Of a stretch of 64,000 nt of DNA, positions 2 to 21,763 are shown piece after piece. The notes under the pieces are model-generated. The model ran no database searches. It was not told where the DNA came from and saw only the letters and a program-made list of their open reading frames with translations. The translations under genes were made by a program, and so were the position numbers. Source of the DNA: a virus; IMG/VR virus record IMGVR_UViG_3300036770_007999, positions 14,137-78,136 of that record. The stretch is one strand, 5' to 3'. Position 1 is the stretch's first letter. Each line of letters begins with the position of its first letter.

Positions 2-775
2 GTGGATGCCTCGGGTATATTCGACATGCGGTCGATACCTGATGTAAGTTATCAGGCCATGGTCTTGGTAGGTCTATACGGGGCTGCTATCACCCACATA
101 GGTGATACCAAGATCTGGCGGCAGACAGTGTTGCGCGATGGTCTCGTAATAGAAGATGCAGCACAGCATTGGCTGGCCAGTGGTGCGATCCGTATCGGCC
201 AGGCCGCAGCGATCAGTTTCGATCCCATGAAGAATTTGGCTGCTTATGGCAACGGCGGCGCCCTAGTTACGAATGATGCTGATCTATATCGCTATGCACA
301 GGCCTGGCGCAACAACGGCAAGCCCGACCATCATCATGTTGGAACCAACAGCCGGATGAGCGAAATAGACTGTGCCCAGTTGCTGGTAAAAACACGCTAC
401 ATCGATGAGTGGCAACAACGGCGTGGCAAAATAGCGCAGTTCTGGATGGACAAGTTGCAATCGTCAGCGGTGCGCTGTCTTGTCACTCGAGACAACTGGC
501 ACGACCATTCTTTTCACAAGTTCGTTATCGACGTAGAAGCACGCGACATACTGCAAAAGAATCTGGCCATACGTGGCATAGAAACCCGGGTGCATTATGC
601 GCAGCCTCTGCATGAGATCGATATCTATCGGCAGTGGCCTGGTCCCACTTTCCTGAGTTCGGCTTCGGCACTGTGCCGCAGGGTGTTGAGCCTGCCTATC
701 TATCCTGAGCTCACAGATCTGCAGGTGGAGTATATAGCGGATCAGGTACGAGATTGTGTGACCAGTTCTGGATGA
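2..775 (+). CDS. DegT/DnrJ/EryC1/StrS-family PLP-dependent sugar aminotransferase (5' truncated by window edge)
   Basis: IEDAAQ; SFDPMKNL with the PLP lysine; GNGGALVTND; GTNSRMSE; C-terminal VLSLPIYPEL. Confidence 0.92.
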   Translation: MDASGIFDMRSIPDVSYQAMVLVGLYGAAITHIGDTKIWRQTVLRDGLVIEDAAQHWLASGAIRIGQAAAISFDPMKNLAAYGNGGALVTNDADLYRYAQAWRNNGKPDHHHVGTNSRMSEIDCAQLLVKTRYIDEWQQRRGKIAQFWMDKLQSSAVRCLVTRDNWHDHSFHKFVIDVEARDILQKNLAIRGIETRVHYAQPLHEIDIYRQWPGPTFLSSASALCRRVLSLPIYPELTDLQVEYIADQVRDCVTSSG

Positions 776-2571
776 AGCATCATGGCATAGGTAGCAAGCC
801 ATGCCCATTCGTAGCTTTTCTTGATCGCGTCAAAATCTCCCCCGACTTCTTCATAGTAACGCACAGCATCCTGGGCACCGCGCAGACTCCAGACACCGTT
901 GACACCATCGCCTTTAGATAGCCATTCTGCCAATCGGTATTCATTCTCTACATCTGGAAGACTGTGCCGAAGTTTCAGGCATTCTCTGAAAGCGGTACGC
1001 CAACAGGTCCAGGGATCGTTGTCGTAGTAGGCAGTACCTGATACCATGGGCACAACCTCGTGTGGATCTTCCAAGGTAAAATCCAGCCCCTGCCCTGTAT
1101 TGGCCATCACTAAATTTACATTGTAGGCTATCATGGCCTGGTGTCCGTACACCAAGTGATTCACAGGATTGTAGGCATGGAAAATATAGTGTTTGGGCTG
1201 TTGCATGCGATCCGGCTGCCATGACCAATCAAAGTCTGCATTGACCTGCAGTTTAGCAAACACAGCAAAGAACCAAGGCGTGCGACTTTTTTCGGCCGCG
1301 GCTTGATAAGCAGCCACCCGACCGTTCACACCATCCACACGATGCAATTGATTAGGCGCCATGTGGTTGGTCAGCGCACCTTGCAGTATGTTCCAGTGAT
1401 GCTCGGCTCCATGTTCTCCATTGGAGATGAATACTATGTCTAAAGGTCGATCCTGTATCCAATTGCGATAGTTTCGATCAATCCATGCGTAGTCGTAGAC
1501 TTGCGACTTAATAAATGGTACTGCTTCTTTAGGTACCACTACTAGTCCTGCTCCGACACTGAGCGGAACCACAGTCCTTGTCTGGTCTCTCCATAGAGAT
1601 ATAGTCGGTATCCTATTTGTATTCATGTCTTGGCAGGCAAACAAAGCGATAGGACCGGACCAATGTGAATTTTGTATCGCTGTAACTTGACTGTCATGTT
1701 GATGCCGCACAACTGGTACAGGTTTCCTTGGCACCGTGATATCGCTGACAAAATTTAGATCGTACCATTCCAACAGTTGAAATTCCGAGATCTTGGCACG
1801 GAACGTGGGCACATGCATGAAAAAGGTATCGCCAAACTTCTGTTCTTCGCTGGGGAAAACGTGCAGCATGTGGTTCTGCCAGGACTCCGGATGCCATGAG
1901 AAATCAAAATTGTAGTAGTTGCAGATGGTGCTACAGATCCATACAAATTCTTGATCGTTAGGTATGCTGGTTGCCAGTCTGGTCAGGGTATCTTTGTAGT
2001 TGTTGAAATATCGTATCCGGCGAGCCACTGGCTGACAGAATTCGTCAACGGTACCATTCATGTGATCTATGAGATAGATCGCCGCGGCCTTGGCACGCAC
2101 ACGGCTTCCGCTCTGGCTCACATACTTGGTTTGACTTCCGCCCGGTACAAGATACCGAGGTCCACCGGTTTTTTGCCATTGGGTACCGAATTCATAGTGG
2201 AAGGGCGGATCAGTATAGTCAGGGTGCCAGGAGAAATCAAAGTCTGTGACACTGTCGGTGTTTTCCCAAAGATCGAGATCTGTTGTCATTGCGATCACGG
2301 GTGATGTATGATAGTTGGTGTCCGTATATCTCGATTTTGGAATCAAATAGGTACCAGAATCACGTTGCCATTGGCTGGCCCAGGCATGTCGTTGAGAGGC
2401 CTGCCACGGTGGGGGTTCCCAAAGGAAGTCGAAGTCTGCATAGTCCGCTAAGTACGTCACTATCCAACAGTAACGTGTGCGACTTTGTTGTCGTGCATGC
2501 TCGACGCTCAAAGCCTCACGCTCATGAGCAAACAGATTAGGCTTTTTTCCGATATAAAATACGTCAAACAT
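742..2571 (-). CDS. Multi-repeat glycosyltransferase-like protein (GT-A-like C-terminal domain)
   Basis: Start refined to MFDVFYIG (ATG at 2571). Repeated DFD(F/W)xWxP motifs. The C-terminal domain (DIVFISNGE..RVDGV..AYQAAA..WRTAFRECLKL) is paralogous to 18687-19613. Confidence 0.6.
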   Translation of the reverse strand: MFDVFYIGKKPNLFAHEREALSVEHARQQSRTRYCWIVTYLADYADFDFLWEPPPWQASQRHAWASQWQRDSGTYLIPKSRYTDTNYHTSPVIAMTTDLDLWENTDSVTDFDFSWHPDYTDPPFHYEFGTQWQKTGGPRYLVPGGSQTKYVSQSGSRVRAKAAAIYLIDHMNGTVDEFCQPVARRIRYFNNYKDTLTRLATSIPNDQEFVWICSTICNYYNFDFSWHPESWQNHMLHVFPSEEQKFGDTFFMHVPTFRAKISEFQLLEWYDLNFVSDITVPRKPVPVVRHQHDSQVTAIQNSHWSGPIALFACQDMNTNRIPTISLWRDQTRTVVPLSVGAGLVVVPKEAVPFIKSQVYDYAWIDRNYRNWIQDRPLDIVFISNGEHGAEHHWNILQGALTNHMAPNQLHRVDGVNGRVAAYQAAAEKSRTPWFFAVFAKLQVNADFDWSWQPDRMQQPKHYIFHAYNPVNHLVYGHQAMIAYNVNLVMANTGQGLDFTLEDPHEVVPMVSGTAYYDNDPWTCWRTAFRECLKLRHSLPDVENEYRLAEWLSKGDGVNGVWSLRGAQDAVRYYEEVGGDFDAIKKSYEWAWLATYAMMLHPELVTQSRT

Positions 2572-3673
2572 GATCAGGATTGATGAAATATACAATAACA
2601 CATTTTGGCCTTGGTTGCGATCTAATAGGCCAGGAACAAGGATGTTTTTTCATGATCCCTTTGGGCGCAGCGATGCCGAAAGTCTTTACAATTATGGACA
2701 AGACACACAACAAGAAAGTAATTATATGTATTTCTTTGACCAGGAGCCCATACATTTAGATCTACACATGTCTACCTTCGATGATGTAGTAAGGAGAAAC
2801 CTCGACATTTGTTGGCCCCATCAGACCCCGGGTTCGATTGTTACCAGTGAACAGCACAGTGAGTTTGTGGAGAGCATCTGCAACACCTATGGTTGGCGCA
2901 GTCATTATTATTTTTTCCACGGATGGGCCAGTCTGGATTGGTTCCGAGGTTATGATAGGACTTTTTTGATGCCAGATCCCAAAGACAGAAAGATCACGAA
3001 AAGTTTTATCAGCGCAAATCGCATCGTGGGCGGTAAAAGAGATCATCGCATCATACTGATGTACAAATTATTCAAGAAAAAAATCAACAACGCCCACATA
3101 AGTTTTCCCGGGATCTGTCCTGCCGAAGGCACACACATAACGTCACTGGTTCACAAATGGCACGATCAATACCCAGATATGCCAGAAACTTTTGCTGCAC
3201 AGAACCTGCCTTGGAATTTCCAGGGTGAGACCGATCATCCCATGCACAGTTGCTGGTTGAGCCTCTTTGATCAGTGTGCCGAGACCTGTGCCTATGTGGT
3301 GACCGAGACTGTGCAACAGGGCAATCGGCATCATCTCACTGAAAAAACTTTCAAACCTATCTGTTTACAAATGCCTTTTGTTTTGGCGTCCACACAGGGC
3401 AGCCTCGACTATCTTAAAAGTTATGGATTCCGGACTTTCAATCATGTCTGGGATGAAAGTTATGATCATGAAAGCGACGATCATCGGCGTATAGAAATGA
3501 TAGCACACATTCTCAAGTCACTGGATGACTGTTCACCTGCTGAATTACACAGCATATATAGACACACATATGAAACTGTGGTCTGGAACTATCAACACTT
3601 TTACGGCGGTGATTTTGAACGCCTGTTGTGGAAAGAATTGCAGCACATGATGCAGGACATGAAACAGACATGA
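2570..3673 (+). CDS. Putative glycosyltransferase (GT10/exostosin-like, phage TET-TEK-KP family)
   Basis: VVTET..LTEKTFKPICLQMPF..GFRTF..WDESYD motif, shared with three paralogs in the window. Confidence 0.6.
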   Translation: MIRIDEIYNNTFWPWLRSNRPGTRMFFHDPFGRSDAESLYNYGQDTQQESNYMYFFDQEPIHLDLHMSTFDDVVRRNLDICWPHQTPGSIVTSEQHSEFVESICNTYGWRSHYYFFHGWASLDWFRGYDRTFLMPDPKDRKITKSFISANRIVGGKRDHRIILMYKLFKKKINNAHISFPGICPAEGTHITSLVHKWHDQYPDMPETFAAQNLPWNFQGETDHPMHSCWLSLFDQCAETCAYVVTETVQQGNRHHLTEKTFKPICLQMPFVLASTQGSLDYLKSYGFRTFNHVWDESYDHESDDHRRIEMIAHILKSLDDCSPAELHSIYRHTYETVVWNYQHFYGGDFERLLWKELQHMMQDMKQT

Positions 3674-4854
3674 TCAATTTCTGTTACGATTCGCTGGGAG
3701 ACAATCCCGATCTCGGTTATCCTAATCTAGCGCAGCCGGCACTGGCTCCGGACGAATTTGATACAACATGGCCCAGGGTGCTGCCGCTCAGGCTGCTGAT
3801 GTATCTACAACAGTTTGGTCATCATTTCCAAAGCTGGCATGTAGCACACGCGCCCAAGGGCAGTTGGTATCCTATCGCATTGGCCTGGCATGACTTTGAA
3901 TGCGATTATTTGGCACTGGCTTCTCACACTGCCCTGGCACGCGCCAGGCGCGGTGAAATCAAGTTCTTTTTCTACTACCACGAAGGCGATCACCCTGGCA
4001 GGATCCAACAGAGATTTGATCTTCTGTGCCGGCAGCATGATCTGCCTCATGACTGTTATCTGTTCATTAGTGCCAACAGCGCAGCCGATCAATATCCGCG
4101 CTGTTATTATTTCAATGATCATGAATATTTTCTCAGTTACATCAATCGTAGACAAACAGCAGACTGGTGCGACCGCAGTGAAAGGCCTTATGAATTTACC
4201 GCACTGAATCGCATCCATAAATGGTGGCGGGCTTCGATTATGAGTGATCTATATCATGAGAAAGTATTGGATCACAGTCTATGGAGTTATAACACGGTGC
4301 TGACAGAAGATGATCGACCCGAAGACAATCCCATCAGATTGGATGCGAGATCAGATTGGTCAACGAAATTGCAACAGTTTCTTTCTGGAGCGCCTTATGA
4401 ATGCGACGGTGCTGACGCAGTATCTCACAACGATCATAGACGCATCAATGTTGATCTTTATACCAAAAGTTACTGCCATCTTGTGTTGGAAACTCTGTTC
4501 GATGTGGATCAGAGTGGGGGCACATTCCTCACCGAAAAGACCTGGAAATGCATGAAATTTGGACAGCCTTTTGTAATCATTGGCCCTGTGGGCAGTCTAG
4601 ATATCTTACGCAGATCTGGGTATCGCGTGTTTGACCATGCTATTGACAATGCCTACGACACTATAGAAGACAACACTGACAGATACCTGGCTGTGAGAAA
4701 ATCCATCGCCGAGATCAAAAAGCAGGACATGCATCAGTGGTACCTAAGGTGTCTCGACGATGTAAAATATAACCAATGGCAATTTCACACCAAAGCCAAT
4801 GGAACCTTAGATTGTTTGGTTAAAAAATTAACTGAACACTCGTACACCATATAG
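3670..4854 (+). CDS. Putative glycosyltransferase (TET-TEK family paralog)
   Basis: LVLET..FLTEKTWKCMKFGQPF..GYRVF..IDNAYD. Start refined to the ATGA overlap with the upstream stop. Confidence 0.6.
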   Translation: MINFCYDSLGDNPDLGYPNLAQPALAPDEFDTTWPRVLPLRLLMYLQQFGHHFQSWHVAHAPKGSWYPIALAWHDFECDYLALASHTALARARRGEIKFFFYYHEGDHPGRIQQRFDLLCRQHDLPHDCYLFISANSAADQYPRCYYFNDHEYFLSYINRRQTADWCDRSERPYEFTALNRIHKWWRASIMSDLYHEKVLDHSLWSYNTVLTEDDRPEDNPIRLDARSDWSTKLQQFLSGAPYECDGADAVSHNDHRRINVDLYTKSYCHLVLETLFDVDQSGGTFLTEKTWKCMKFGQPFVIIGPVGSLDILRRSGYRVFDHAIDNAYDTIEDNTDRYLAVRKSIAEIKKQDMHQWYLRCLDDVKYNQWQFHTKANGTLDCLVKKLTEHSYTI

Positions 4855-6312
4855 CTTTTCAAATCGGTCAGCGTCTGATCGATCGTTGACCATGGGTTCG
4901 CCGCGGATGTTGAGGCTGGTATTTAACAGCATGGAACAACCGGTTCGTGCATGCCAGGCCTCCAGCAACCGACGGAATCCGGATCCATCAGCCGGCACAG
5001 TCTGTACTCGAGCAGTACCATCTACATGTGAGATTGCAGAATACAAATCAGGTCTGCGCACGCGGGCCACGATCTGCATGTATCTTGAAGCGGCGAAACT
5101 GCGCGGCATCTCAAAATAGTCCGCCACATACTCTTCCAATATGGCTGGTGCAAAAGGTCGGAATTTCTGTCTGCGTTTGATTGCATTCACTAGGTCTTTG
5201 ATTTCCGGTCCTCTAGGGTCCGCGAGCAGACTGCGATTGCCCAGTGCGCGCGGACCAAACTCAGCACGGCCGCTAGCCACACCAGCAATAGCATGGGCAC
5301 AGAGATGATCAACAACGTCGTCAACAGGATAAGGCCCAGGAATATCATGACCAAGATAAGCATGGCGCCAGTTAAGTCTTCCGCCATGAGCCAAAGCCGC
5401 TGCACCCAGGCTCGATCCTGCGTCGCCCGGGTTGGGCATGATCCAGATGTTGTCATATACGTCTCCTATTCTTGCGTTGGCCACGCAGTTCAATGCCACT
5501 CCACCCATGTATACGAGATTATCGCTGTTGACCAGACTCCTGGCCCGCTGCACGACATTGTGTATCATTTGCTCGGCTAGATGTTGACCTGCTGCGGCCA
5601 AATCTACAGCCTTGTAAGCACTGAGTTCATCGTCATCGAACCCTATGTGCAGATTCCTTCGCATGCGGACATCAATTAGATCGTCTATGCAATGATCTCG
5701 TAACCAAGCAGTACCTAGACCAGATCCGTAAGCGGCCATGCCCATGGTGATGTATTCTTCTTCCATGGGCTTCAAGCCCACGGCTTTTGTGATGGCCGAA
5801 TAGAAAAGGCCGATGGAATGTGGATAACCTTGCCTCCATACACGCTGATACTGGGCATGCCCATCGTGATCGTACCAGGCACGGAATATAGATACGGTAT
5901 CCATCTCGCCTATGGCATCTATCACCACCACAGCGGCCTCTTGGAAAGGTGAAGTCTGGAATCCAGCAGCGGCATGACTGAGATGATGAGGATAACTCGC
6001 TTCTCTACGAGCAGGATGTTGATACCAAGAGCCTAGGTGTTGCCGTATGGCCTGACCAGTGGTCCAGGGCCCATACTCTCGCTGCCCGCTGCGCCATTGT
6101 TGGAGATTGTGCATCCATGGACGCTCGTAGAATGCCACTGTGTCAAATTCATGATCACAACATTCTCGTAAAAGATCCGGATGTATGTTGGGATCATTCT
6201 TTATCTTACTGTAGCGTTCAGAATGTCCTGCAAACATGATCTCGCCGTCTTGGCGCACCACAGTGACAGCAGCATCGTGGAATCCGGCACTGATGCCTAA
6301 CACCTTTTTCAT
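4828..6312 (-). CDS. Carbamoyltransferase (NodU/CmcH/TobZ family)
   Basis: GISAGFHDAA, ERYSKIK, HHLSHAA, GGVALN, PGDAG, GRAEFGPRALGNRS, KRRQKFRPFAP, LLNTSLN. Confidence 0.95.
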   Translation of the reverse strand: MKKVLGISAGFHDAAVTVVRQDGEIMFAGHSERYSKIKNDPNIHPDLLRECCDHEFDTVAFYERPWMHNLQQWRSGQREYGPWTTGQAIRQHLGSWYQHPARREASYPHHLSHAAAGFQTSPFQEAAVVVIDAIGEMDTVSIFRAWYDHDGHAQYQRVWRQGYPHSIGLFYSAITKAVGLKPMEEEYITMGMAAYGSGLGTAWLRDHCIDDLIDVRMRRNLHIGFDDDELSAYKAVDLAAAGQHLAEQMIHNVVQRARSLVNSDNLVYMGGVALNCVANARIGDVYDNIWIMPNPGDAGSSLGAAALAHGGRLNWRHAYLGHDIPGPYPVDDVVDHLCAHAIAGVASGRAEFGPRALGNRSLLADPRGPEIKDLVNAIKRRQKFRPFAPAILEEYVADYFEMPRSFAASRYMQIVARVRRPDLYSAISHVDGTARVQTVPADGSGFRRLLEAWHARTGCSMLLNTSLNIRGEPMVNDRSDADRFEKLYGVRVFS

Positions 6313-6410
6313 TTGTAGATAAAAGGATCTCGTTTACGCAATTCTTTAAGTTTCTTGCGGTACCGTATTTCCAAGCGAATCTTTTGCCATAGGTCCTTGA
6401 GCCATTTCAT
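6309..6410 (-). CDS. 33-aa basic protein MKWLKDLWQKIRLEIRYRKKLKELRKRDPFIYK, coupled to the carbamoyltransferase
   Basis: Translated by hand; not in the ORF track. Exact ATGA overlaps at both ends (with 6407-7465 and 4828-6312). AGGAG lies upstream of the ATG. Confidence 0.8.
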   Translation of the reverse strand: MKWLKDLWQKIRLEIRYRKKLKELRKRDPFIYK

Positions 6411-7465
6411 TGTGTTTCTCCTGTCATGCGATATATGTAGTCCGGATCGCGCCAACAGTAATCATATTCGGTCTGCTGGTGCGCTGTTTTTACCGCGGCC
6501 ACATCTAGATGGCTGTTCAACTGTTGCCAGATATCTTGATAATCGGTGGTGCCAAAACTGCGCTCAAGATCCACCTGACCTATCTGCGGGTGCCCAATGG
6601 TGAGAGCAGGATCATCAGGATCAAATCCATTGTGTTGCAGCCACTCACGGAATTCAGACAATTGTTGATGCATGAACGGATGCTGCCCGGGATCCTGGCC
6701 CCATTCGATATCAAAGTCTGCTGCTGCTTCAGTCTGGCTGCGCAAGGTCGTGGTGGTCAGTTCATCTAGACGGCTGTCTCGGCCCTCATCTTGGAAGACT
6801 TCCCAGTGATGCTTGCCCACGGCTTTGTTTACTCCTACGTATACCCCTCCCATTGGGCGTGCAATGGTATTGATACCAAATAGATCGAGATCTTCTGTGT
6901 CTAATGCGAATCGAGGAGCATGATTCCAACACATGAGTTGGCTAGGCCTTTGCCATTCTGGCAGTGTGTGTTTTTTCCGCCAACTCAAGGCCCAGGTTTC
7001 AAATTCGTGGCACAGGAGATTGAGTTGACTGATATGCCATCGAGTTTCGGCATCGGCTGCATTCCAGTACTGGCTCATGCTGCCACTCACGCCTTGTAGA
7101 TCTTCAAAGTATCTGTGCAGGCGATTGAAACGATCGTGTCGCAGCCTGTGTTCGCTGTCAAGGCAGTCTGCGTACTCAAACATGTCGTTGATCTCATAGC
7201 CCAGTCTTTTATCATTGATATGAGCGATAGATCGGTTGATCTCGCGGCACAGAAATTGGCCGTTTCTAGGTGAATCTGCGAAGCCAAGAAAACAGTAATG
7301 TTTTTGCAGCGCCATTGATCGTGCCAGCACATCGTCTAATGCGGCCAGCCAGCGTCTGGCCAAAGAATTATCCCAGACATCGATCCACACAGTGATATCG
7401 TGGCGAGAGTCGGTATTTCTAAGAACAATCTCTACGGTATCAATCAATGCTTTGCCACCAATCAT
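6407..7465 (-). CDS. Hypothetical protein in the radical SAM/carbamoyltransferase operon
   Basis: 352-aa ORF coupled to both neighbours; His-containing motifs (LHRYFE, LCHEFE); no family recognised. Confidence 0.7.
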   Translation of the reverse strand: MIGGKALIDTVEIVLRNTDSRHDITVWIDVWDNSLARRWLAALDDVLARSMALQKHYCFLGFADSPRNGQFLCREINRSIAHINDKRLGYEINDMFEYADCLDSEHRLRHDRFNRLHRYFEDLQGVSGSMSQYWNAADAETRWHISQLNLLCHEFETWALSWRKKHTLPEWQRPSQLMCWNHAPRFALDTEDLDLFGINTIARPMGGVYVGVNKAVGKHHWEVFQDEGRDSRLDELTTTTLRSQTEAAADFDIEWGQDPGQHPFMHQQLSEFREWLQHNGFDPDDPALTIGHPQIGQVDLERSFGTTDYQDIWQQLNSHLDVAAVKTAHQQTEYDYCWRDPDYIYRMTGETQ

Positions 7466-13636: not shown

Positions 13637-15008
13637 GCTGCTCACATTCTGTCCACCACTGTCGCATCTGTGGAAACACACCAAGGAAGTTGGTACCGCG
13701 ACGCCGATCGTGTTCTGAGAAAAATCTCCAAAAGTCCGCGCGCTCCTGCGTGCAATCACGCTTTTGTCCATCTCTCATCCAGGCGATGTCTCGGCGCAGG
13801 CGTTGTACTTCAAAATCTCGGAATCCATTCAATGGATCGCGATCGGTTGCCAGGTTCAGTTCCATCCAGTCAGCGGTGCGTTCCAGGATGGCAGCATAGC
13901 TTTCAGGCAGGATCTGCAGGCTCTGCCAAGCGGGCTGTCGCAGCACCGGTGTGTCAAACCAGATGCGTTGATATCCAGCCGTGTTTTCTTTGCGTAGTTC
14001 TAAGATGACCTCTAACAGTTTCTGCAGACCCAACACAGATAGATTGTTCATGGTGATGATAAACGTTAGACTGTTGCGCCCCGGTATCTCATCAAGCCAT
14101 TGGGCACAACGACTTAGGCATAGATGGGCATCAAGACCGTGTCGGATGTATTCAGCATGTGCCAGGAACCCTGAATCTATCGACACAAACTGCATGAAAT
14201 GTTCTATGTTTGTGGCACACAGTCTTTTGGTATAGTTTAGATACTTCTGCCACAGTTTTTCTTCCACTGAGAAATTGCTGGTTACATTTAGATGTAGGTC
14301 GGGCTTGGGCATGGCCAGCACATAGTCAAACACTCGATAGGTATTGCGATCCATCAAGGGTTCACCGCCGGTCATACGGAAATGGCGCAGTCGAGGATAC
14401 AGAGTGGGCCACCAGGCCCAGAAAGCATCTACCCAAGGATTATGCTCCCTAGCAGGAATAGGGCGACGCTCACCGCGAAAATGATCGGGATCATTGTGAG
14501 GCGTGGCAGTAGGATAGGCGCCATGCCTTTCTACTTCGGCCTGCCAGGTGCTAGAAAACTGAGGACTGCAATAACTACAGGCCAGATTACAAGCATGATT
14601 AAAATTGACTTCCACATAACTGGGTATAACATCATCCTCATCTCCTGTGCTTGCAGCAATACGATCAAAATCAATGGCTGCCCAGGGTTCGCCGGATCTG
14701 TAGTGTCTGTCAGACATCTCACCTAGATCTTCCATGTTCCAACAGTACTGGCATTCTGCCGGCCGTTCGCCGCGCAGCATCATCTGGCGTTGAACCTTTT
14801 TGTGAGCAGTGTTGTGCAGGGCGCCAGGTGTGCGTCCTATCTCTTCGATGGGTATCCTGTGTAAGGGCGGGTGATAGCAGGAATTGTTCATGCCAGTGGC
14901 GAGATGCAGGCTTACCTGCTTCCACTTGGCGAGGCATAGGCTGGGACTGACGCTGTCTAAACGCTGTTTCATTGCCTCGGCATCATTGAGGAATCGTGAC
15001 TTTGTCAT
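13620..15008 (-). CDS. Radical SAM protein, twitch-type domain (CxAKW subtype)
   Basis: CLAKW..SCYHP..CQYCW; CNLACSYC; TGGEP. Start refined to MTKSRFL, just after the upstream stop. Confidence 0.9.
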   Translation of the reverse strand: MTKSRFLNDAEAMKQRLDSVSPSLCLAKWKQVSLHLATGMNNSCYHPPLHRIPIEEIGRTPGALHNTAHKKVQRQMMLRGERPAECQYCWNMEDLGEMSDRHYRSGEPWAAIDFDRIAASTGDEDDVIPSYVEVNFNHACNLACSYCSPQFSSTWQAEVERHGAYPTATPHNDPDHFRGERRPIPAREHNPWVDAFWAWWPTLYPRLRHFRMTGGEPLMDRNTYRVFDYVLAMPKPDLHLNVTSNFSVEEKLWQKYLNYTKRLCATNIEHFMQFVSIDSGFLAHAEYIRHGLDAHLCLSRCAQWLDEIPGRNSLTFIITMNNLSVLGLQKLLEVILELRKENTAGYQRIWFDTPVLRQPAWQSLQILPESYAAILERTADWMELNLATDRDPLNGFRDFEVQRLRRDIAWMRDGQKRDCTQERADFWRFFSEHDRRRGTNFLGVFPQMRQWWTECEQHAKRA

Positions 15009-15013
15009 TTTTG

Positions 15014-15712
15014 TCACGAGTGCAAGGCCAGCCAGGCCAGCACCGTTGGTTTGAGATACTCTGCAAAGTCTCGATGAGCCTCTGGAGTTGGGTGTTCGTG
15101 GCAAAAATATCCGTGCTCTTCCCACCAGCACCACTCTTTTATCTGCTGGTCCCAGGCAAATACCATTTCGCGAGAGGGAACTATGGCATCTGCGTGCATG
15201 CGCCAACCCACATCGCTGGCTCCCCATCCTTGAATAAACCACTGACTGTTCAATCGATCAGCGATCCATCTTTGCCAACTATGGTGCAGCACTGTCCATC
15301 TTGATGGCATTTCCACATGCTTTGGTATGTCACTCAACCCTCCTATCCAGGCTATGGGATTGGGTAAGGCATGTTGTATGTCAAGGAACAACTGTGTTTC
15401 AACACTGCGTCTCCGGGCGCCAAAAAAAGGCTCATTGATTATCCAATCGTGCGCCGATGTGCCATTGATCTTGGCGCTGTCTCTGCCCGGTTCGGTGTAA
15501 ATCCACACTATGGGACATTGCGGTGACAGGCGTTGAGCTCGCAATTGTTCTAAAATGTCCAAGTTACCTTGTCCAGGTCTAGCACAATGCTGATATTCTT
15601 TGCCCCAGAAATCTGCCAAGCATACATCTTGCGGTTGATCCTGGTTAGAATCATAGTTGTCTTTGGTGTAGCCTTTCCAGGCCCAACTGTCTCCGGCAAA
15701 TATGTAGGTCAT
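15014..15712 (-). CDS. SGNH/GDSL-like hydrolase or acyltransferase
   Basis: N-terminal FAGDSW, G-x-GN block, C-terminal EHPT..AH. Confidence 0.5.
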   Translation of the reverse strand: MTYIFAGDSWAWKGYTKDNYDSNQDQPQDVCLADFWGKEYQHCARPGQGNLDILEQLRAQRLSPQCPIVWIYTEPGRDSAKINGTSAHDWIINEPFFGARRRSVETQLFLDIQHALPNPIAWIGGLSDIPKHVEMPSRWTVLHHSWQRWIADRLNSQWFIQGWGASDVGWRMHADAIVPSREMVFAWDQQIKEWCWWEEHGYFCHEHPTPEAHRDFAEYLKPTVLAWLALHS

Positions 15713-16572
15713 TTTAGATCTCGCTTGAGCTGCGCATAGATCTGATCACCAATGTATTGTTCAGGGCAGAAACGACACTGGTCTATGGGCTTGTCTAGAT
15801 TGTTGATAAAATGCTGTTTTTGTTCCCTGGTATGATCGATTCTCAGTGGACGGTAATCCAGCATCAGCACCCGGTCCTCGGCACTGAGAGTCAGTTGATG
15901 TTGTCGATCAAATTCCGGCAATACAGCCACTACCCCACATTTATACAGTTCACCACGGATAAAATGATGGCAGGTTTTCATGTGACAGGTATCATGTGCT
16001 TTTTTTGGATCACTCTGGTGCAACGACAGTGCTCCTGTCTGCTTGACGATGGCACCTTGATGGAACCACCAATTGTACTCAATCTTAACTGGCACCTTGG
16101 CCGAGTCGGTTATTATCATGTATTGCTGATAAAGATTGTCGCTATTGAATGTCACTGTACATGGTAATTGCAAAAAGTCATGTACTTTGGCAACGATTTC
16201 TTTTTTGTGTTGCTTGTTGTGGATTCCGATCCATAACTCGATATTGCGATGTTTTTGCAATAATGGATATAAATCAGCCCTGCGGTCCAACCTAAAACCA
16301 TTGGAAATGATGCGTATGGTTCGACCTGGCCATAGTTGATTGACGCCTTGCACCCAATCAAGAAACGTGGGATTCATCAAGGGCTCTCCACCCAAGATCG
16401 AGATGCTGCCAATGTTGATTTCTTGTGCCCACTGCTGATATGTATCAGCATAGTCTGACCAGCGTTGATATCCGGTAAAGACATAATTATTAAAACGATT
16501 GCAACCTGGGCACGCAAGATTGCACATGTTAGTGATGTAAAATTCAACATAGGGTATGTGCAGTTTGGTCAT
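15709..16572 (-). CDS. Radical SAM protein
   Basis: CNLACPGC; LGGEP; SNG; C-terminal C..C..LYKC..CRFCP auxiliary cluster motif. Confidence 0.9.
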   Translation of the reverse strand: MTKLHIPYVEFYITNMCNLACPGCNRFNNYVFTGYQRWSDYADTYQQWAQEINIGSISILGGEPLMNPTFLDWVQGVNQLWPGRTIRIISNGFRLDRRADLYPLLQKHRNIELWIGIHNKQHKKEIVAKVHDFLQLPCTVTFNSDNLYQQYMIITDSAKVPVKIEYNWWFHQGAIVKQTGALSLHQSDPKKAHDTCHMKTCHHFIRGELYKCGVVAVLPEFDRQHQLTLSAEDRVLMLDYRPLRIDHTREQKQHFINNLDKPIDQCRFCPEQYIGDQIYAQLKRDLK

Positions 16573-16608
16573 GTCGATCTTGGTCGCTGCTTAATTTGTT
16601 GTCATTGC

Positions 16609-17604
16609 TCATCTGGTTTCAGATTGTATCAAGGCTATCACCTCTTGATGATCTAGATTCAGCAATCTATCACGGTTGTGTTTTAATATAGGCAGCATTT
16701 CGGTATAGGTCTGTTGTATTTCGTTCAAAGACCAGGTAGCCAACCGGTCTAAATTCTTTTCAATGTCAGTACACTGCCCCGAGTAATGATCCTCATTATA
16801 GCCTTCATCCCACCACTGATCGAACGTCTTGAATCCCAATCTGCGGAGGCGTGATATGTACCATTGAGGTCCTTGCACCATAAAGGGTGTCATCATGACC
16901 ATTGGACGCCATGTTTTTTCTGTGGGGAAAAAAGTATTGCCCATTGAATAAGTCTCAGTCACAATCTCAACAAAAAAATGTTGATAGTGATTGATCAATC
17001 CATACCCGGCAGGATTGGTTATAGGGTAGATATAAACATCATCCAGCGTGATAGGACTATTTTTCCAAAGATGTACGATGTCATCTAGCCGGTCTATGTG
17101 GTTGAAGTTGATGAGATCTTCAATCCCGATATTCTGATTATGGTAGTCATTGCCAGGATCATAGTGAAAACTTTGCAAAGTGCGCGAGGCATGACGACTG
17201 TGCAGATAGCTGGCCAATTTTAATCTATGCCAATTGGATCTTGCCACAAAGGATCCAAAGGTTCTAAAATTGTGATCGAACTGTTTGATCATGGGAGCTC
17301 GTACACTGGCCTGCTCTTTGGCCCAATTTAAATACATCCAAGGAAAATTGCGTCGGAGACGTATTTCCGGATGGGCTTCAAAAATATTACCGGTCCTGAT
17401 CTCTATTCGAGATTTGTCATAATCAGTTTTGTCAGCAATATCGTTGATATACTGATACACGTCCAATGTGTCAAGATCAGGTCCTTCGGTATTGAGATCG
17501 ATGGTGATATCTTGAGATTGGCACATAGCGATCGATAACTCAATCAAAAATTTTTCTTTATGCCATATACGACCATCGGTTGTGATCAAGTCAATTTTGG
17601 TCAC
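16609..17604 (-). CDS. Putative glycosyltransferase (TET-TEK family paralog)
   Basis: EIVTET..FPTEKTWRPMVMMTPF..GFKTFDQWWDEGY. Confidence 0.6.
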   Translation of the reverse strand: MTKIDLITTDGRIWHKEKFLIELSIAMCQSQDITIDLNTEGPDLDTLDVYQYINDIADKTDYDKSRIEIRTGNIFEAHPEIRLRRNFPWMYLNWAKEQASVRAPMIKQFDHNFRTFGSFVARSNWHRLKLASYLHSRHASRTLQSFHYDPGNDYHNQNIGIEDLINFNHIDRLDDIVHLWKNSPITLDDVYIYPITNPAGYGLINHYQHFFVEIVTETYSMGNTFFPTEKTWRPMVMMTPFMVQGPQWYISRLRRLGFKTFDQWWDEGYNEDHYSGQCTDIEKNLDRLATWSLNEIQQTYTEMLPILKHNRDRLLNLDHQEVIALIQSETR

Positions 17605-18647
17605 TGATTGATACCCCGCATGTAAGTGTAAATATCGGTTACCAGGTGATTGCCCTTACCACATTGGTGTGCGCATCTTTCTAACCTGCTATCATCATTC
17701 CAACTCGATTCTATGACGTTGAACCACGGGCCATGGATGATATCATAAAGTTTGGTAAAATTAAGATTGGCCATGTGTGCACCGCCTGCACGCTCAAAAA
17801 GATCCGCCATACGTGCATGATCTGGATGATTTTCCGCCTCAAACCCATACAATCTGTCCGCTAAAAATCCACAAGGAAATACATAGCCATCTGCACCGAT
17901 ATAGATAATACTGAGTTTTTTGGAGATACAGTTTATATCAACGGTTTTGTAATCAGATTGTTGTTGCAATTGCTGATATCCTGGATTGACCAATGCAGGA
18001 TCCGTGGGCAATTTAAGGAAAAAAATCTTTTTGCCATCCAGCACCGGAACACTGTGTACTAGCTCGTGTTGTTTATTGACGAATCGTGTTGTATACTTGG
18101 CCATAAAATTCTTAAATCCAAGATCCTTGCTCATTTGTCTGGCTTTTTCGATCTGATGTTGGTTATGTTCAAAAACCAGGAATTGCCATGTGGCCTGGCC
18201 GCCTTGCTCAATGAAAGCCTTGGCATGGGTTATCACTTTGTCAAAAGCCACACCTTTACGGTACAAGTGATTGGTAGATCGCAACCCGTCAATACCAAAA
18301 ATTACTTCATCACTGCTGCCAAGCGCATTCGCCAGATCCCGCCACCAATGTGTGGATCTGATCCCACCATTGGTGCTGACAAAAATCTTTGCCGGTGACA
18401 CCGATCTCAACCAAAAAATGATTTCGATCAAATCTGGGTGAGTACAAGGGTCACCGTAGGTTCCACAAAATCTAATGACCTCAAGTGAAGACAACAGATC
18501 CTGGGGTAATTTTTCTTTTAACCAAGTCAGTCTCAAAGACACATCGGGTACAGTAGGCCATTTGGGTCCACCATAAAGGTTTCTGCTACACTGCGGACAG
18601 GCAGCATTGCATGCTGTGGTAATCTCAAGTTCAAGTTGTTTGATCAA
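17601..18647 (-). CDS. Radical SAM protein with C-terminal SPASM/twitch domain
   Basis: CNAACPQC; CGTYGDP; STNGG; C..IGADGYVFPC..CAHQC. TTG start. Confidence 0.9.
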   Translation of the reverse strand: MIKQLELEITTACNAACPQCSRNLYGGPKWPTVPDVSLRLTWLKEKLPQDLLSSLEVIRFCGTYGDPCTHPDLIEIIFWLRSVSPAKIFVSTNGGIRSTHWWRDLANALGSSDEVIFGIDGLRSTNHLYRKGVAFDKVITHAKAFIEQGGQATWQFLVFEHNQHQIEKARQMSKDLGFKNFMAKYTTRFVNKQHELVHSVPVLDGKKIFFLKLPTDPALVNPGYQQLQQQSDYKTVDINCISKKLSIIYIGADGYVFPCGFLADRLYGFEAENHPDHARMADLFERAGGAHMANLNFTKLYDIIHGPWFNVIESSWNDDSRLERCAHQCGKGNHLVTDIYTYMRGINQ

Positions 18648-18686
18648 TTTATCTCAAGCTCTTCAGAATCGCTGTAAGTTTTGCAT

Positions 18687-19613
18687 CTACCAACCTTCTT
18701 GTCTCCGTATCACATCTATCTCGCGGACCATGATACCTTGGTTCGACCAATTGCTGCGGTAATGATGTTTGAAGAATCTGCTGTGAGAGGCATCCATGCT
18801 GATCACAGGAAGATCAAGTCGTGTTTTTAACGCATCTTCATGATCTCGGACAACAGAATCTGGATCTAAGAACTGGGTTTCTTGCCATATCTGTTCTAGC
18901 GCATCAAACCATTGTACTTCTCTGTGATCCCAATCTGTAAGCATGGTTTTATAGGTACCTTGACGTGCACCGACCATGGCCCAGACACCATGCTCCACAT
19001 CGCGTCCTACGTTGTGCCATATAGTGAGATGGTCAAAATTTCTTCGGTGTACTCGATCTCGGAATTCGGTCACAGAGGGTCGACGACCTTTGTCTAGGCA
19101 CATCTTTACACCTTCTCGAAATCCTGCACGCCAGGCATGCTTGGCGGATCCGTTGGGATATGTAGTGGAATAACAGTCATGCATGGCCCAGTACAAGGGA
19201 TCAAAACAGAATTCAACCTGGGTTTCATCACGTCCGTCAGTATTTTCATGTGTTTTCATGTTCAGCACAAAATCTCTGGTCCATGAACTAATACCACCGT
19301 TGCCATACATTAAGCCGTTGACGTGATTGCGGGCACGCCAACGGAACACGGCTTGTTCCCATTGTTCGTCTGGCAGTTTCAATGTTAGATTGAAAAAACG
19401 CTCATCTGGCACATTGTCACCATCAATGAGAATGAAACGTTTGGTATCAGATGCTTCCGCTGCTGCTTTGTGGGCAGCATCAGATCCTTTGATGCCATCC
19501 ACTCTCTTGGCCCAAGGGATCATGTTGCGAATGCGCACCCAGAATTCTTCCTTCTGTGGTTCATCGTAACTGAGATAAATGCAGTCCAGATCTGCTACGT
19601 CAATTGATGTCAT
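18687..19613 (-). CDS. GT-A-fold glycosyltransferase-like protein
   Basis: IYLSYDEP..RVDGIKGSDAAHKAAA..LIDGDN (DxD-like)..NGLMYGNGG..AWRAGFREGVKM. Start refined to MTSIDV. Confidence 0.65.
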   Translation of the reverse strand: MTSIDVADLDCIYLSYDEPQKEEFWVRIRNMIPWAKRVDGIKGSDAAHKAAAEASDTKRFILIDGDNVPDERFFNLTLKLPDEQWEQAVFRWRARNHVNGLMYGNGGISSWTRDFVLNMKTHENTDGRDETQVEFCFDPLYWAMHDCYSTTYPNGSAKHAWRAGFREGVKMCLDKGRRPSVTEFRDRVHRRNFDHLTIWHNVGRDVEHGVWAMVGARQGTYKTMLTDWDHREVQWFDALEQIWQETQFLDPDSVVRDHEDALKTRLDLPVISMDASHSRFFKHHYRSNWSNQGIMVREIDVIRRQEGW

Positions 19614-19956
19614 TAGTGATTTTTTTCCATTTTTGGTGTGGACGATCCGGCGCAACTACCACACACACGTCTCGATGATCGCAGGGCACTCCATGTTCGC
19701 TGTGCCTAGCCAGTTTTGAAACCTGGATCCGGGGTTCCAACACCATCATCCGGCCATCTTGTATACGGACCTGATAAGACGCACGCACATAAGTGGCCTG
19801 ATCCACTTCTATGTACGTACCTGGCAATTGTTCCATAGAATAAAACAAAGGATGCCCCCGATCATCATGATAGAGTCGATAGGTCACCGGCGCCGGCTCC
19901 GGCCATTGGAATTCGCTCAGCGCCGTCCAGAAATTTTGGGTGGTAGAATCACTCAT
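19600..19956 (-). CDS. Hypothetical protein
   Basis: Coupled ORF (YRLYHDDRG..YSME..GTYI). Start refined to the ATGA overlap at 19956. Confidence 0.65.
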   Translation of the reverse strand: MSDSTTQNFWTALSEFQWPEPAPVTYRLYHDDRGHPLFYSMEQLPGTYIEVDQATYVRASYQVRIQDGRMMVLEPRIQVSKLARHSEHGVPCDHRDVCVVVAPDRPHQKWKKITNDIN

Positions 19957-20687
19957 CCGATTAGCCACGACTTGATATGATAGTGCACCGGACCCCATTG
20001 AGCCACTGTGTTGATGCGCACAGGATCGATTTCCAATGTGAGTTCTTTTGTCCAATCATTGGTCTTGATTGGGTTGATGCCCGGTTTCATGTGGACTATA
20101 GATGGTCCTAGGCCCGAAGGCAGTGTCACACGCTCTATCCCCATGATCACAGCCGCCATGGCATAAACTACATCCGTGGTAGGTTCTTCATCGGGGTATT
20201 TCAACAAGGTTCGATATGACGCCCAATAGATGAAAATCGCGCGTACGAGCCTGAAAAATTCCTGCGCTGTCTGGCTCACGCGCCAATAAGTTACGGCATT
20301 GTACACATCTGGCAAGTGGTTGTGATCAAATGTTCGACGATAGGTCCGGCACAATGTGTGTTGATCGTAGAAGTCTCGAGCACCTTGGCTGATCACCACA
20401 TCTCGCAGTTCAAACAAGTTCCACCAGTGATCGATTGGACTGGCCAAGATCATGTCTGCTTCCAGTTTGATGGTTTCACGATAAGGGCTGACCTGCCAGC
20501 ACTGCCAGTCGTTAGCGAAACCACCTAGGTCGCCATGCGGTAAATCTAGATCCGTAATCACAGTGACGTGGGCGTCCGGATGCCATGTGAGGATGCTGCG
20601 ACGCAGTCTGTCAGCGCAGGCTTTGTAGTCCGAGCCATCTCGATCCACGGCCATGATCAGATAGCCACGTTCATGCGTGATCGGCAA
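19953..20687 (-). CDS. GT8-like glycosyltransferase
   Basis: RGYLIMA..SPYRETIKLEADM..LPDVYNA..TTDVVYA..VHMK. TTG start at 20687 with GGAGG 6 nt upstream. Confidence 0.6.
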   Translation of the reverse strand: MPITHERGYLIMAVDRDGSDYKACADRLRRSILTWHPDAHVTVITDLDLPHGDLGGFANDWQCWQVSPYRETIKLEADMILASPIDHWWNLFELRDVVISQGARDFYDQHTLCRTYRRTFDHNHLPDVYNAVTYWRVSQTAQEFFRLVRAIFIYWASYRTLLKYPDEEPTTDVVYAMAAVIMGIERVTLPSGLGPSIVHMKPGINPIKTNDWTKELTLEIDPVRINTVAQWGPVHYHIKSWLIG

Positions 20688-21426
20688 CGATGGCCTCCAA
20701 CTGTGTTTTGCCCATGGCATGGAAATCCTGCGATATCGTGATCCAACGAGCACGATTGGCAGTGTCTTGGAAATCTACACGATACTGGTCCTGGCCAGTC
20801 TGTCGTAGCCTGTGGTCAGGTATCAGCGTGGCCAGGCCCCAAGGAATCGCGGCATGATCCAACCAGTGTCCATCACTGACCAACATGGCTATGCTGAGGG
20901 CGTGATCGTTGCGATAGGTGGCCTGGCGTATCTTGTAGAGATCGCGATAATGGCTCCAATTATCACGCACCATCCGCATCATATCGAAAATGAAACGTGC
21001 GTGATCGCTGCGACGGAACATCATCACAGTGGCCCACCACATGGGCATCCGATGTTCCCCGAAGTGATTCAACCCCTGGAAATCGTTGCAGCCAGTGATG
21101 TCATAGGCTGATCGGTGTGCTAGAAAATCTTGATCTGCCTCAAACAGGCTGCCAAGAGTATCGCTGGCCACCACGTAGTCGGCATCCAGCACCAAGGTAC
21201 GATCCCACGGCGTGACATCATATGCATCAACCCTACTGGCATTGTGCCAGGCCACATGTCCTAGATCAGTGAAATGTCTGCTGTTGCTGCTGTGCGGATA
21301 TTGGTCAGTGACAATGTAAGTGGGTATGCCAAGATGACGCTGAATGTTGCCGGCATTCCAGCGGGCCATGGCCTCATAGTCAGTGGCACCATTGTTTACA
21401 GCAAAAATCAATGCTCCAGTGGTCAT
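20671..21426 (-). CDS. GT8-like glycosyltransferase
   Basis: GALIFAVNN..TPWDRTLVLDADY..WWATVMMF..YRNDHA..HAMGK; paralog of the neighbouring gene. Confidence 0.62.
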   Translation of the reverse strand: MTTGALIFAVNNGATDYEAMARWNAGNIQRHLGIPTYIVTDQYPHSSNSRHFTDLGHVAWHNASRVDAYDVTPWDRTLVLDADYVVASDTLGSLFEADQDFLAHRSAYDITGCNDFQGLNHFGEHRMPMWWATVMMFRRSDHARFIFDMMRMVRDNWSHYRDLYKIRQATYRNDHALSIAMLVSDGHWLDHAAIPWGLATLIPDHRLRQTGQDQYRVDFQDTANRARWITISQDFHAMGKTQLEAIVADHA

Positions 21427-21728
21427 CTCTGCTGCGCGAGTGAGTCATGTTCGATCAACCATGCCGTCATCTGTTCCTGCCATCGCTGCATGGCAATATC
21501 ACGCAGTTCCGCAACCGTGATGCGCACCGGTGTCTGATAGAGGTCCAAGATCACTGCTTCGGCATCCGGACAAACTGCCAGGAGGTTCAGCAGTTCCGGG
21601 CCGGCCTGCCACATGCCACCAGAATAGGCAAAGGTCATTTTGGCTTGATATTTTTCTATGAGCAAACGCCGGGCTGCTGCATGTTCAAATCGGGCACGCC
21701 CGTGCGCAATCAATTGATCAGTATCCAT
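21423..21728 (-). CDS. Hypothetical phage protein, first gene of the modification operon
   Basis: 101-aa ORF directly after a sigma70-like promoter; ATGA-coupled to the next gene. Confidence 0.7.
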   Translation of the reverse strand: MDTDQLIAHGRARFEHAAARRLLIEKYQAKMTFAYSGGMWQAGPELLNLLAVCPDAEAVILDLYQTPVRITVAELRDIAMQRWQEQMTAWLIEHDSLAQQR

Positions 21729-21734
21729 AGGATG

Positions 21735-21763
21735 ATTTTAACAGAAATGTGTTGCAAAGTAAA
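21735..21763 (-). promoter_or_regulatory. Sigma70-type promoter (TTTACT-N17-TAAAAT, extended -10 TGn) upstream of the modification operon
   Basis: Minus strand TTTACT ttgcaacacatttctgt TAAAAT catcct ATG; ATG is 6 nt after the -10 element. Confidence 0.6.

Follow-up and report, generated by a model that had tools for sequence, protein, structure and literature searches.

The stretch of viral DNA analysed here, hereafter the window, comprises 64,000 nucleotides (bases 14137–78136) of the 78,136-bp linear IMG/VR contig IMGVR_UViG_3300036770_007999. It carries a locus of about 22 tightly packed genes, which lies directly behind tail-fibre genes and encodes seven radical S-adenosylmethionine (SAM) proteins, an O-carbamoyltransferase, an aminotransferase and several glycosyltransferase (GT)-like proteins. 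The source is an uncultured jumbo tailed phage. CheckV estimates the contig to be 22% complete, which implies a genome of about 350 kb, and complete relatives measure 337–347 kb, with direct terminal repeats in two of them. A megablast search of phage records with the 22-kb locus did not return a close isolate, and a sequencing-run look-up placed the stretch in one subsurface metagenome, with no RNA run listed. The minus-strand genes from 21728 to 4828 had been described as one tightly coupled run, and the junction distances agree with this description, most neighbouring genes overlapping or lying less than 40 nt apart. The genes of the locus, with positions counted from the first letter of the window, are as follows.

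2–775, plus strand: DegT/DnrJ/EryC1-type pyridoxal-phosphate aminotransferase, C-terminal 257 residues in the window (PF01041, 3e-41)
742–2601, minus strand: FDW619, multi-repeat protein in which the motif [FYW]D[FW]xWxP occurs four times; its C-terminal domain is homologous to U322
2570–3673, plus strand: TEKa, putative glycosyltransferase of predicted GT-B fold; aligns with the TEK family and carries its invariant E...TEK...PF motif
3628–4854, plus strand: TEKb, putative glycosyltransferase of predicted GT-B fold (TEK alignment), converging on the carbamoyltransferase gene
4828–6312, minus strand: O-carbamoyltransferase of the TobZ/NodU/NovN family, with both Pfam domains
6309–6410, minus strand: unannotated 33-residue basic peptide; ATGA overlap onto the carbamoyltransferase start, GGAG upstream
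6407–7465, minus strand: U352, conserved protein modelled as a beta-barrel with a helical-bundle insertion; in 53 of 80 related loci
7440–8729, minus strand: NT1, N-terminal-twitch radical SAM protein (NF033640, 296 bits); CNFKCRTC at residue 132; orthogroup forms a clade
8716–9930, minus strand: NT2, N-terminal-twitch radical SAM protein (NF033640, 339 bits); SPASM at residues 9–78, before Radical_SAM at 119–277
9927–11186, minus strand: NT3, N-terminal-twitch radical SAM protein (NF033640, 387 bits)
11173–12507, minus strand: NT4, N-terminal-twitch radical SAM protein (NF033640, 292 bits); clade support 1.0
12500–13636, minus strand: TEKc, putative glycosyltransferase of predicted GT-B fold (AlphaFold2 model), wedged between NT5 and NT4
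13620–15011, minus strand: NT5, N-terminal-twitch radical SAM protein (NF033640, 298 bits), the paralogue kept in phage RsoM2USA
15014–15712, minus strand: U232, accessory protein; SGNH-like GDS motif at the N terminus (invariant G7-D8-S9); in 3 of 80 loci
15709–16572, minus strand: rS6, accessory radical SAM protein (Radical_SAM, 35.9 bits); CNLACPGC at residue 17; in 5 of 80 loci
16609–17604, minus strand: TEKd, putative glycosyltransferase of predicted GT-B fold (TEK alignment)
17601–18647, minus strand: rS7, accessory radical SAM protein, its C-terminal Cys region SPASM-like (Radical_SAM, 30.5 bits; SPASM, 0.0018); in 4 of 80 loci
18687–19613, minus strand: U322, core GT2/GT-A-like protein; D-G-D-N motif invariant; present in 72 of 80 loci, twice in RsoM2USA
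19600–19956, minus strand: U151, small conserved protein without a family match; in 40 of 80 loci
19953–20720, minus strand: U266, GT8-like (glycogenin-like) protein by profile match to glycogenin, with the DxD motif replaced by E-A-D
20671–21426, minus strand: U251, GT8-like paralogue of U266 (hhalign), with an invariant D81-x-D83
21423–21728, minus strand: U101, small conserved protein encoded between fibre and transferase genes
21807–22814, minus strand: TF335, Thr/Ser-rich fibre-like protein (31% Ser + Thr), candidate acceptor
22825–24177, minus strand: TF450, fibre or spike protein; its C terminus weakly matches the intramolecular chaperone Peptidase_G2

All seven radical SAM genes proposed in the preliminary description were recovered in family searches, and each encoded protein contains a CxxxCxxC motif. 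Five of them, NT1–NT5, belong to the NCBIfam family NF033640 (N_Twi_rSAM), with whole-protein scores of 295.7, 339.1, 387.2, 291.8 and 297.5 bits against a curated cut-off of 170 bits. The remaining two, rS6 and rS7, score only 25–28 bits on this model but exceed the Pfam Radical_SAM cut-offs; they are ordinary radical SAM proteins with C-terminal Cys-rich tails. The N-terminal position of the twitch (half-SPASM) domain is seen directly in NT1–NT5, in which a Pfam SPASM match at residues 8–96 lies ahead of Radical_SAM at residues 119–288. Across the five proteins, which share only 19–29% identity, the invariant Cys residues are C32, C51, C92 and C95 in the N-terminal region and C139, C143 and C146 in the core motif. 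In a tree of 151 N_Twi proteins, the five orthogroups each form their own clade and are each found in 21–28 of 28 sampled genomes, with Shimodaira–Hasegawa-like support ranging from 0.47 (NT1, the lowest) to 1.0 (NT4). This pattern indicates that the duplication is old and that every copy has been kept, and five old, retained copies fit five distinct jobs better than redundancy. By phylogeny and gene order, then, NT1–NT5 are ancient paralogues maintained in a fixed order. Homologues of NT3 are abundant in metagenomes (more than 7,400 at E ≤ 1e-10), a single-protein scan of genome contigs returned two short contigs from metagenome-assembled genomes (MAGs) only, and PHROGs gave only a weak radical SAM match for the proteins of the locus. 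Searches of the PDB and the literature found neither a characterized member nor a solved structure of NF033640, so membership assigns no reaction, and none of the papers returned by literature searches dealt with the operon or with N-terminal-twitch radical SAM enzymes.

The arrangement of the genes is conserved. Relatives are encoded in at least 587 stretches of viral contigs, and the comparison of gene order was made on 80 related viral contigs or loci, down to 35% identity. The constant order is TF450, TF335, U101, U251, U266, (U151), U322, NT5, (TEKc), NT4, NT3, NT2, NT1, U352, peptide and carbamoyltransferase, followed in many loci by a divergent TEKb–TEKa–FDW619 block; the aminotransferase with its neighbouring dehydrogenase gene, rS6, rS7 and U232 are rare accessories. 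Co-occurrence of the genes in relatives, which had been set as a test beforehand, was thus found as strict synteny in the 80 viral contigs and in one cultured phage. The adjacency to Thr/Ser-rich fibre genes, also pointed out in advance, proved invariant: upstream DNA can be read for at least 2.5 kb in 38 loci, and every one of these has fibre genes upstream of U251. The median Ser + Thr content is 29% in 46 TF335 homologues versus 11% in the enzymes.

The cultured phage is Ralstonia phage RsoM2USA (343.8 kb, MG752970), the only isolate that contains a U322-like or NT5-like gene. Its ORFs 355–348 encode a fibre-like protein, U101, two GT8-like proteins, a GT2-like protein, one N_Twi protein (ORF349, 35% identical to NT5) and a second GT2-like protein, which together constitute a minimal syntenic module. 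A separate observation concerns Vibrio phage K566 (255 kb), in which four distant N_Twi genes (21–25% identity) are clustered at 161.5–168.3 kb; genes for GT8-like proteins, U322 and carbamoyltransferase were not found in that cluster.

Members of NF033640 also occur in cellular genomes, where their neighbourhoods provide an independent view of the substrate. The family was found in 79 of 301 genomes sampled from the phylum to which a MAG titled Bdellovibrio belongs, often in five or more copies on megabase contigs, and scored above the cut-off in none of 14 control genomes. Twelve of these chromosomal arrays (islands) were surveyed; their neighbouring genes include homologues of U322 (three loci), TEK (one) and U352 (one). 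Among the 96 neighbouring proteins, Pfam assigned further copies of Radical_SAM (15 neighbours), Glycos_transf_2 (5, best 9e-33), Glyco_tranf_2_2 (5), Glyco_tranf_2_3 (4), PMT_2, a GT-C family (3), Lipase_GDSL_2 (2) and DegT (1). This cellular association of N_Twi with glycan genes, being independent of the phage locus, is the strongest support for a carbohydrate substrate.

The carbamoyltransferase is the best-defined enzyme of the run. Both its domains, the Kae1-like N-terminal Carbam_trans_N (115.6 bits; cut-off 24) and the YrdC-like C-terminal Carbam_trans_C (162.9 bits; cut-off 27), are present, and its profile matches NovN (1.5e-77), GdmN (8e-73) and TobZ (9e-51) in the PDB, as expected from the initial assignment. 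Residues H109, H110, H113 and D297, presumably equivalent to the metal ligands of TobZ, are invariant in 45 homologues. The 33-residue peptide encoded immediately upstream is itself highly conserved, with a mean column identity of 75% and a nearly invariant stretch of 17 residues at its end; its conserved C terminus reads YRKKLKELRKRDPFIYK. The peptide is found in 57 related loci, including all 49 of those with the carbamoyltransferase, and in 282 representative clusters of a protein library, all with the same terminal motif, and has no match in Pfam or NCBIfam. In the saxitoxin cluster, sxtJ and sxtK are small open reading frames (ORFs) of unknown function beside the carbamoyltransferase gene sxtI (PMC2885083). 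An SxtK/DUF5989 identity was considered for the peptide and rejected, as nine peptides gave no Pfam match at E ≤ 10 and the sequence is basic, lacking the hydrophobic core expected between an LWxF-like start and a PFIY end. Complex predictions of the carbamoyltransferase with the peptide scored 0.60, 0.00 and 0.00, which is evidence neither way.

The four TEK proteins had been proposed to be GT-like, and the fold of TEKc is in line with that proposal. These paralogues and 52 homologues have no sequence match in Pfam, PHROGs or the PDB. The E...TEK motif presumably resembles that of GT10. None of the 56 members matches any glycosyltransferase Pfam, Glyco_transf_10 included, at E ≤ 0.05. The AlphaFold2 model of TEKc (predicted local distance difference test (pLDDT), 88; predicted template modelling score, 0.85) aligns in VIA with 50 GT-B chains at Z scores of 13.0–9.2 over 241–301 residues. 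All of the top 50 are GT-B enzymes, the T4 beta- and alpha-glucosyltransferases and GT10 fucosyltransferases among them, and Foldseek gave weak matches, almost all to GT-B enzymes. From the lack of a sequence match together with these alignments, the TEK proteins are predicted to be a new sequence family with the GT-B fold, as modelled for TEKc. The TEKc ORF itself reaches position 13771, and its first 40 residues, which overlap NT5, are disordered.

Of the two proteins described as GT8-like, U266 is linked to the family directly, its profile (19953–20753) matching glycogenin-1 (GT8) at 5e-8 over the first 110 positions only; U251, the profile of which has no PDB match, is tied to GT8 solely as a paralogue of U266 (hhalign, 99.8%, E 8e-28). 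In the consensus IKLEADM of U266, E-A-D aligns with D81-x-D83 of U251, and no member of either family exceeds a Pfam threshold. The two GT-A-like assignments found weak support. U322 has 51 invariant columns in 35 homologues, five of which match Glyco_tranf_2_3 below its cut-off (best 0.0024); the family has no PDB sequence match, and the atlas names given automatically to its clusters are GT2-like. On these sequence features U322 is likely a GT-A enzyme. FDW619, present in 17 related loci at a coverage above 50%, has no Pfam or PHROG match, and its residues 386–576 match the U322 profile at 4e-17 (hmmsearch) without retaining the DGD motif; its repeat motifs lie at residues 57, 121, 232 and 457. 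For U232, the SGNH-like call comes from the invariant GDS of block I, and Pfam, NCBIfam and PDB searches lent no support to that call.

Among the other conserved proteins, U352 (AlphaFold2, pLDDT 90) has no Foldseek match in the PDB and no usable match in the atlas. Its VIA alignments are middling, with cyclophilin-like barrels at Z 7–8.4, a range expected by chance, and helical bundles at Z 9; against BFVD it matches ten uncharacterized phage proteins at 2e-20 to 2e-6, one of them from Agrobacterium phage Atu_ph07. U101 is present in 40 loci and in RsoM2USA. The match of TF450 to Peptidase_G2 (PF11962, 0.0012) is below the cut-off, and its N terminus resembles ORF355 of RsoM2USA.

The locus is longer than was first described, because beyond the start of the window it continues with the rest of the aminotransferase gene and a short-chain dehydrogenase/reductase (SDR) gene; the gene run within the window is as described, apart from the 33-residue gene, which had been missed. 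The whole DegT gene encodes 368 residues (contig bases 13805–14911; PF01041, 4e-60, 204 bits), which upholds the aminotransferase assignment. The nucleoside diphosphate (NDP)-sugar SDR that precedes it (contig bases 12868–13851) ties dTDP-glucose 4,6-dehydratase and UDP-glucose 4-epimerase in the PDB, and either function fits. A ThyX gene lies upstream of the pair, and upstream of ThyX are genes for a MoxR-like AAA ATPase and a DUF2201 metallopeptidase/VWA protein (contig bases 6785–7876 and 9409–10686). Two components of a tripartite tricarboxylate transporter, TctA (2e-53) and a TctC-like binding protein, are encoded at contig bases 3227–5471; as an auxiliary metabolic gene pair they are unusual.

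At the other end, the same-strand run extends upstream through tail-fibre, giant-fibre and baseplate genes to about 50713, so that genes for a baseplate gp25-like protein, spike proteins, a giant fibre-like protein and the two fibre proteins all share the strand of the cluster and lie shortly upstream of it. A single ORF of 4,697 residues (25004–39097, minus strand) between the baseplate and fibre genes contains an FG-GAP repeat (3e-12) and has weak matches to CBM_5_12 and to the T7 tail-fibre N terminus; judged by these domains, it is probably a giant fibre or adhesin. A promoter and terminator scan found sites no commoner than in shuffled sequence; one of them, a promoter-like TTTACT-17-TAAAAT with an upstream TG, lies at 21763–21735 (minus strand), within the 78 nt that separate the fibre gene from the operon's first gene.

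Genes, families, folds, strict synteny and linkage to the fibre genes are established here; the pathway that they might encode is proposed as follows. The SDR and the DegT aminotransferase would supply an NDP-amino(deoxy)sugar, an accessory step that varies between relatives. The GT8-like pair and the GT2-like U322 would begin a glycan on a soluble acceptor, for which the neighbouring Thr/Ser-rich fibre proteins are the likeliest candidates, and a variable number of TEK transferases would lengthen it. The five N_Twi enzymes might each carry out one distinct edit through a 5′-deoxyadenosyl radical, on sugar residues or on NDP-sugars, with oxidation, epimerization, deoxygenation and C–C bond formation as candidates. 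The TobZ-like enzyme, together with its co-translated 33-residue peptide, would then O-carbamoylate a sugar hydroxyl, and rS6, rS7 and the SGNH-like U232 could add lineage-specific edits. Taken as a whole, late-expressed and wholly cytoplasmic assembly of a glycan with radical editing, probably on virion fibre proteins, is a reading to which we give an even chance of being correct.

Family searches of three complete relatives (99–100% complete), in each of which control genomes gave matches, bear on where such a glycan could be attached. Known sugar modifications of phage DNA begin at hydroxymethyl-pyrimidines. No hydroxymethylase of the ThyA family (PF00303) was found in the three relatives, compared with a match in 10 of 14 control genomes, which makes that route unlikely. 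Likewise, Bac_transf, Glycos_transf_4 and Wzy_C were found in none of the three; the phage has no means of its own to begin a lipid-linked glycan, and a surface polysaccharide made self-sufficiently is disfavoured. Stepwise glycosylation of a soluble acceptor is the most plausible course, and the fixed position of the cluster behind the fibre genes points to the fibre proteins as that acceptor. Thus, of the original suggestion of a complex decorated glycan on the virion, the DNA or the host surface, the glycan is supported by glycosyltransferase folds and families and by synteny, the virion is indicated by gene position only, and the DNA and the host surface are disfavoured.

Several other explanations were weighed against these data. 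The cluster could remodel a host surface glycan, acting at the inner face of the membrane on the lipopolysaccharide (LPS) core or on lipid-linked intermediates and thereby masking receptors, blocking superinfection or keeping progeny from being trapped on debris. U266 matches GT8, the family of the LPS core transferases RfaI and RfaJ, and bacterial N_Twi genes adjoin PMT_2/GT-C and GT2 genes typical of envelope glycans. However, none of the cluster proteins has a transmembrane segment, the three complete relatives lack an initiating phosphoglycosyl transferase and a Wzy-type polymerase or ligase (flippases were not searched), and the invariant position behind the fibre genes would go unexplained; we regard this explanation as unlikely. 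The same linkage is left unaccounted for if the product is instead a small molecule of aminoglycoside, nucleoside or nucleotide type, directed against competitors or host defence and made by radical SAM chemistry on nucleotides or NDP-sugars. The enzyme mix does resemble that of antibiotic clusters, with NovN, GdmN and TobZ as the nearest solved carbamoyltransferases, and both the weak similarity of N_Twi to viperin and MoaA and the stand-alone N_Twi genes dispersed through the complete relative G001 would fit, but family searches of the cluster proteins found no cyclitol synthase, non-ribosomal peptide synthetase or polyketide synthase, and six to eight glycosyltransferase-like genes are many for such a product. 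We therefore place it slightly below remodelling of the host surface, as an unlikely explanation too.

Direct modification of protein, as in peptides that are synthesized ribosomally and modified post-translationally (RiPPs), would have the radical SAM enzymes cross-link or epimerize residues of a peptide or of the fibres, with the transferases adding decoration. SPASM/twitch radical SAM enzymes are typical peptide maturases (PMC11002830), and a very conserved small ORF lies within the operon. That peptide, however, goes with the carbamoyltransferase rather than with the radical SAM genes, which speaks against its being a RiPP precursor: a precursor–maturase pairing was rejected on finding it absent where N_Twi genes occur without the carbamoyltransferase, namely in RsoM2USA, K566 and the 12 bacterial islands. 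It is too nearly invariant to resemble a RiPP core, the fibre proteins contain no or one Cys, and the 25 families most common around the bacterial N_Twi genes include neither a protease nor an exporter, all of which makes this explanation improbable. DNA hypermodification, in which the transferases would glycosylate modified phage bases and the other enzymes edit the sugar, is less probable again and in our judgement should be given little weight. The TEK model does align with the T4 beta- and alpha-glucosyltransferases (Z 12.2 and 11.7), but 50 different GT-B enzymes score alike, so this similarity is generic; in addition to the missing ThyA-family enzyme, a ThyX gene is present, and the cluster sits with late structural genes rather than with replication genes.

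The proposal of a glycan built on the fibres and edited by radical chemistry also has evidence against it. Its product, acceptor and activities are all predicted from sequence, and late expression is deduced from gene position only. Fibre proteins are often rich in Ser and Thr anyway, and GT8 enzymes also act on LPS cores. The structures nearest to the NF033640 proteins (viperin, MoaA and BlsE) belong to enzymes that act on nucleotides. Moreover, complete relatives have 8–17 N_Twi copies each, and in G001 ten more N_Twi genes occur singly among unrelated genes, far from glycosyltransferases and with no recurring partner. These dispersed genes show that the family is not tied to this cluster, and its substrate range may be wider than the operon. 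They lie at 191–341 kb, and two of them adjoin proteins with an N-terminal GDS motif. An IscU/NifU_N scaffold is encoded in G001 (C1:291412–291783) and in the relatives G002 and G003 (~1e-54); in G001 one of the dispersed N_Twi genes is found about 1 kb downstream of the scaffold gene, which is followed by an IscA-like ORF, identified by eye.

To our knowledge, the glycosylation that phages encode is known in simple forms only, examples being glucosylated DNA and a small number of glycosylated capsids. Few enzyme sets in this widespread clade of giant phages are as large as the operon described here, and the N_Twi family, which has never been assayed, turns up in roughly one in four of the genomes sampled from a single bacterial phylum; solving the product would give a large orphan enzyme family a reaction and could reveal new sugar chemistry and how giant phages decorate fibres or hosts. 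A bolder conjecture, which is possible although we rather doubt it, is that N_Twi enzymes are an unrecognized, oxygen-independent class of glycan-editing enzymes, five of which would act in series to remodel a fibre oligosaccharide that is then carbamoylated, the same chemistry serving envelope glycans in the sampled bacterial genomes. If glycan editing does take place, the virion would gain a chemically unique coat or receptor-binding surface bearing a sugar without known counterpart, for example one that is deoxygenated, epimerized or C–C cross-linked. Because RsoM2USA is cultured and carries the minimal module, the question is directly testable.

The individual enzymes can be compared with characterized ones. 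The phage carbamoyltransferase resembles TobZ, NovN, GdmN and NodU in its two domains and strong profile matches, with invariant His and Asp columns as the presumed metal ligands, but is about 80–190 residues shorter than the solved TobZ/NovN/GdmN-type enzymes and is translationally coupled to the basic peptide, an arrangement not known for those enzymes. NT1–NT5 resemble the rest of NF033640 in score and in the four N-terminal Cys residues ahead of the CxxxCxxC core; what sets them apart is their occurrence as five orthogroups in fixed order within a phage operon. BtrN, DesII, BlsE and AprD4 act by radical SAM chemistry on the (amino)sugars or NDP-sugars of antibiotic pathways, some with one auxiliary cluster in a twitch domain and with DegT-type aminotransferases in the same pathways. 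Homology to them is confined to the superfamily level (BtrN, E 0.54; BlsE, E 0.009), and the twitch domain is N-terminal in NT1–NT5, whereas it is C-terminal in the antibiotic sugar-tailoring enzymes. The analogy with aminoglycoside pathways (BtrN, StrB1) drawn in the preliminary description was therefore not sustained as homology, BtrN being marginal and no amidinotransferase having been found among the genes.

At the level of whole systems, RsoM2USA carries one radical SAM gene where the present locus has five and lacks the carbamoyltransferase, the peptide, U352 and the TEK genes; its module genes are all annotated as hypothetical, and the paper on this phage does not discuss them. T4-like marine viral genomes contain up to 12 radical SAM genes together with IscU or A-type carriers (Nishimura et al. 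2017, PMC5332604) and thus, like the complete relatives here, combine many radical SAM genes with genes for iron–sulfur assembly; that study counted Fe–S-related metabolism and did not describe the operon, the N_Twi family or a link to glycosyltransferases. Glycoproteins have been reported in virions of the jumbo phage XacN1 (PMC5852040), which does not have the module, so they show only that the phenomenon exists in jumbo phages. The closest parallels to the proposed scheme are virion glycosylation in mycobacteriophages (Freeman et al. 2023, as cited in PMC12619734) and capsid glycosylation in chloroviruses, in which, as proposed here, genes for soluble viral glycosyltransferases adjoin structural genes and the glycan is cytoplasmic and made without a host lipid carrier. 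Neither of these two is known to include radical SAM enzymes or a carbamoyltransferase, whereas the system described here, known from its genes alone, would combine soluble glycosyltransferases with both.

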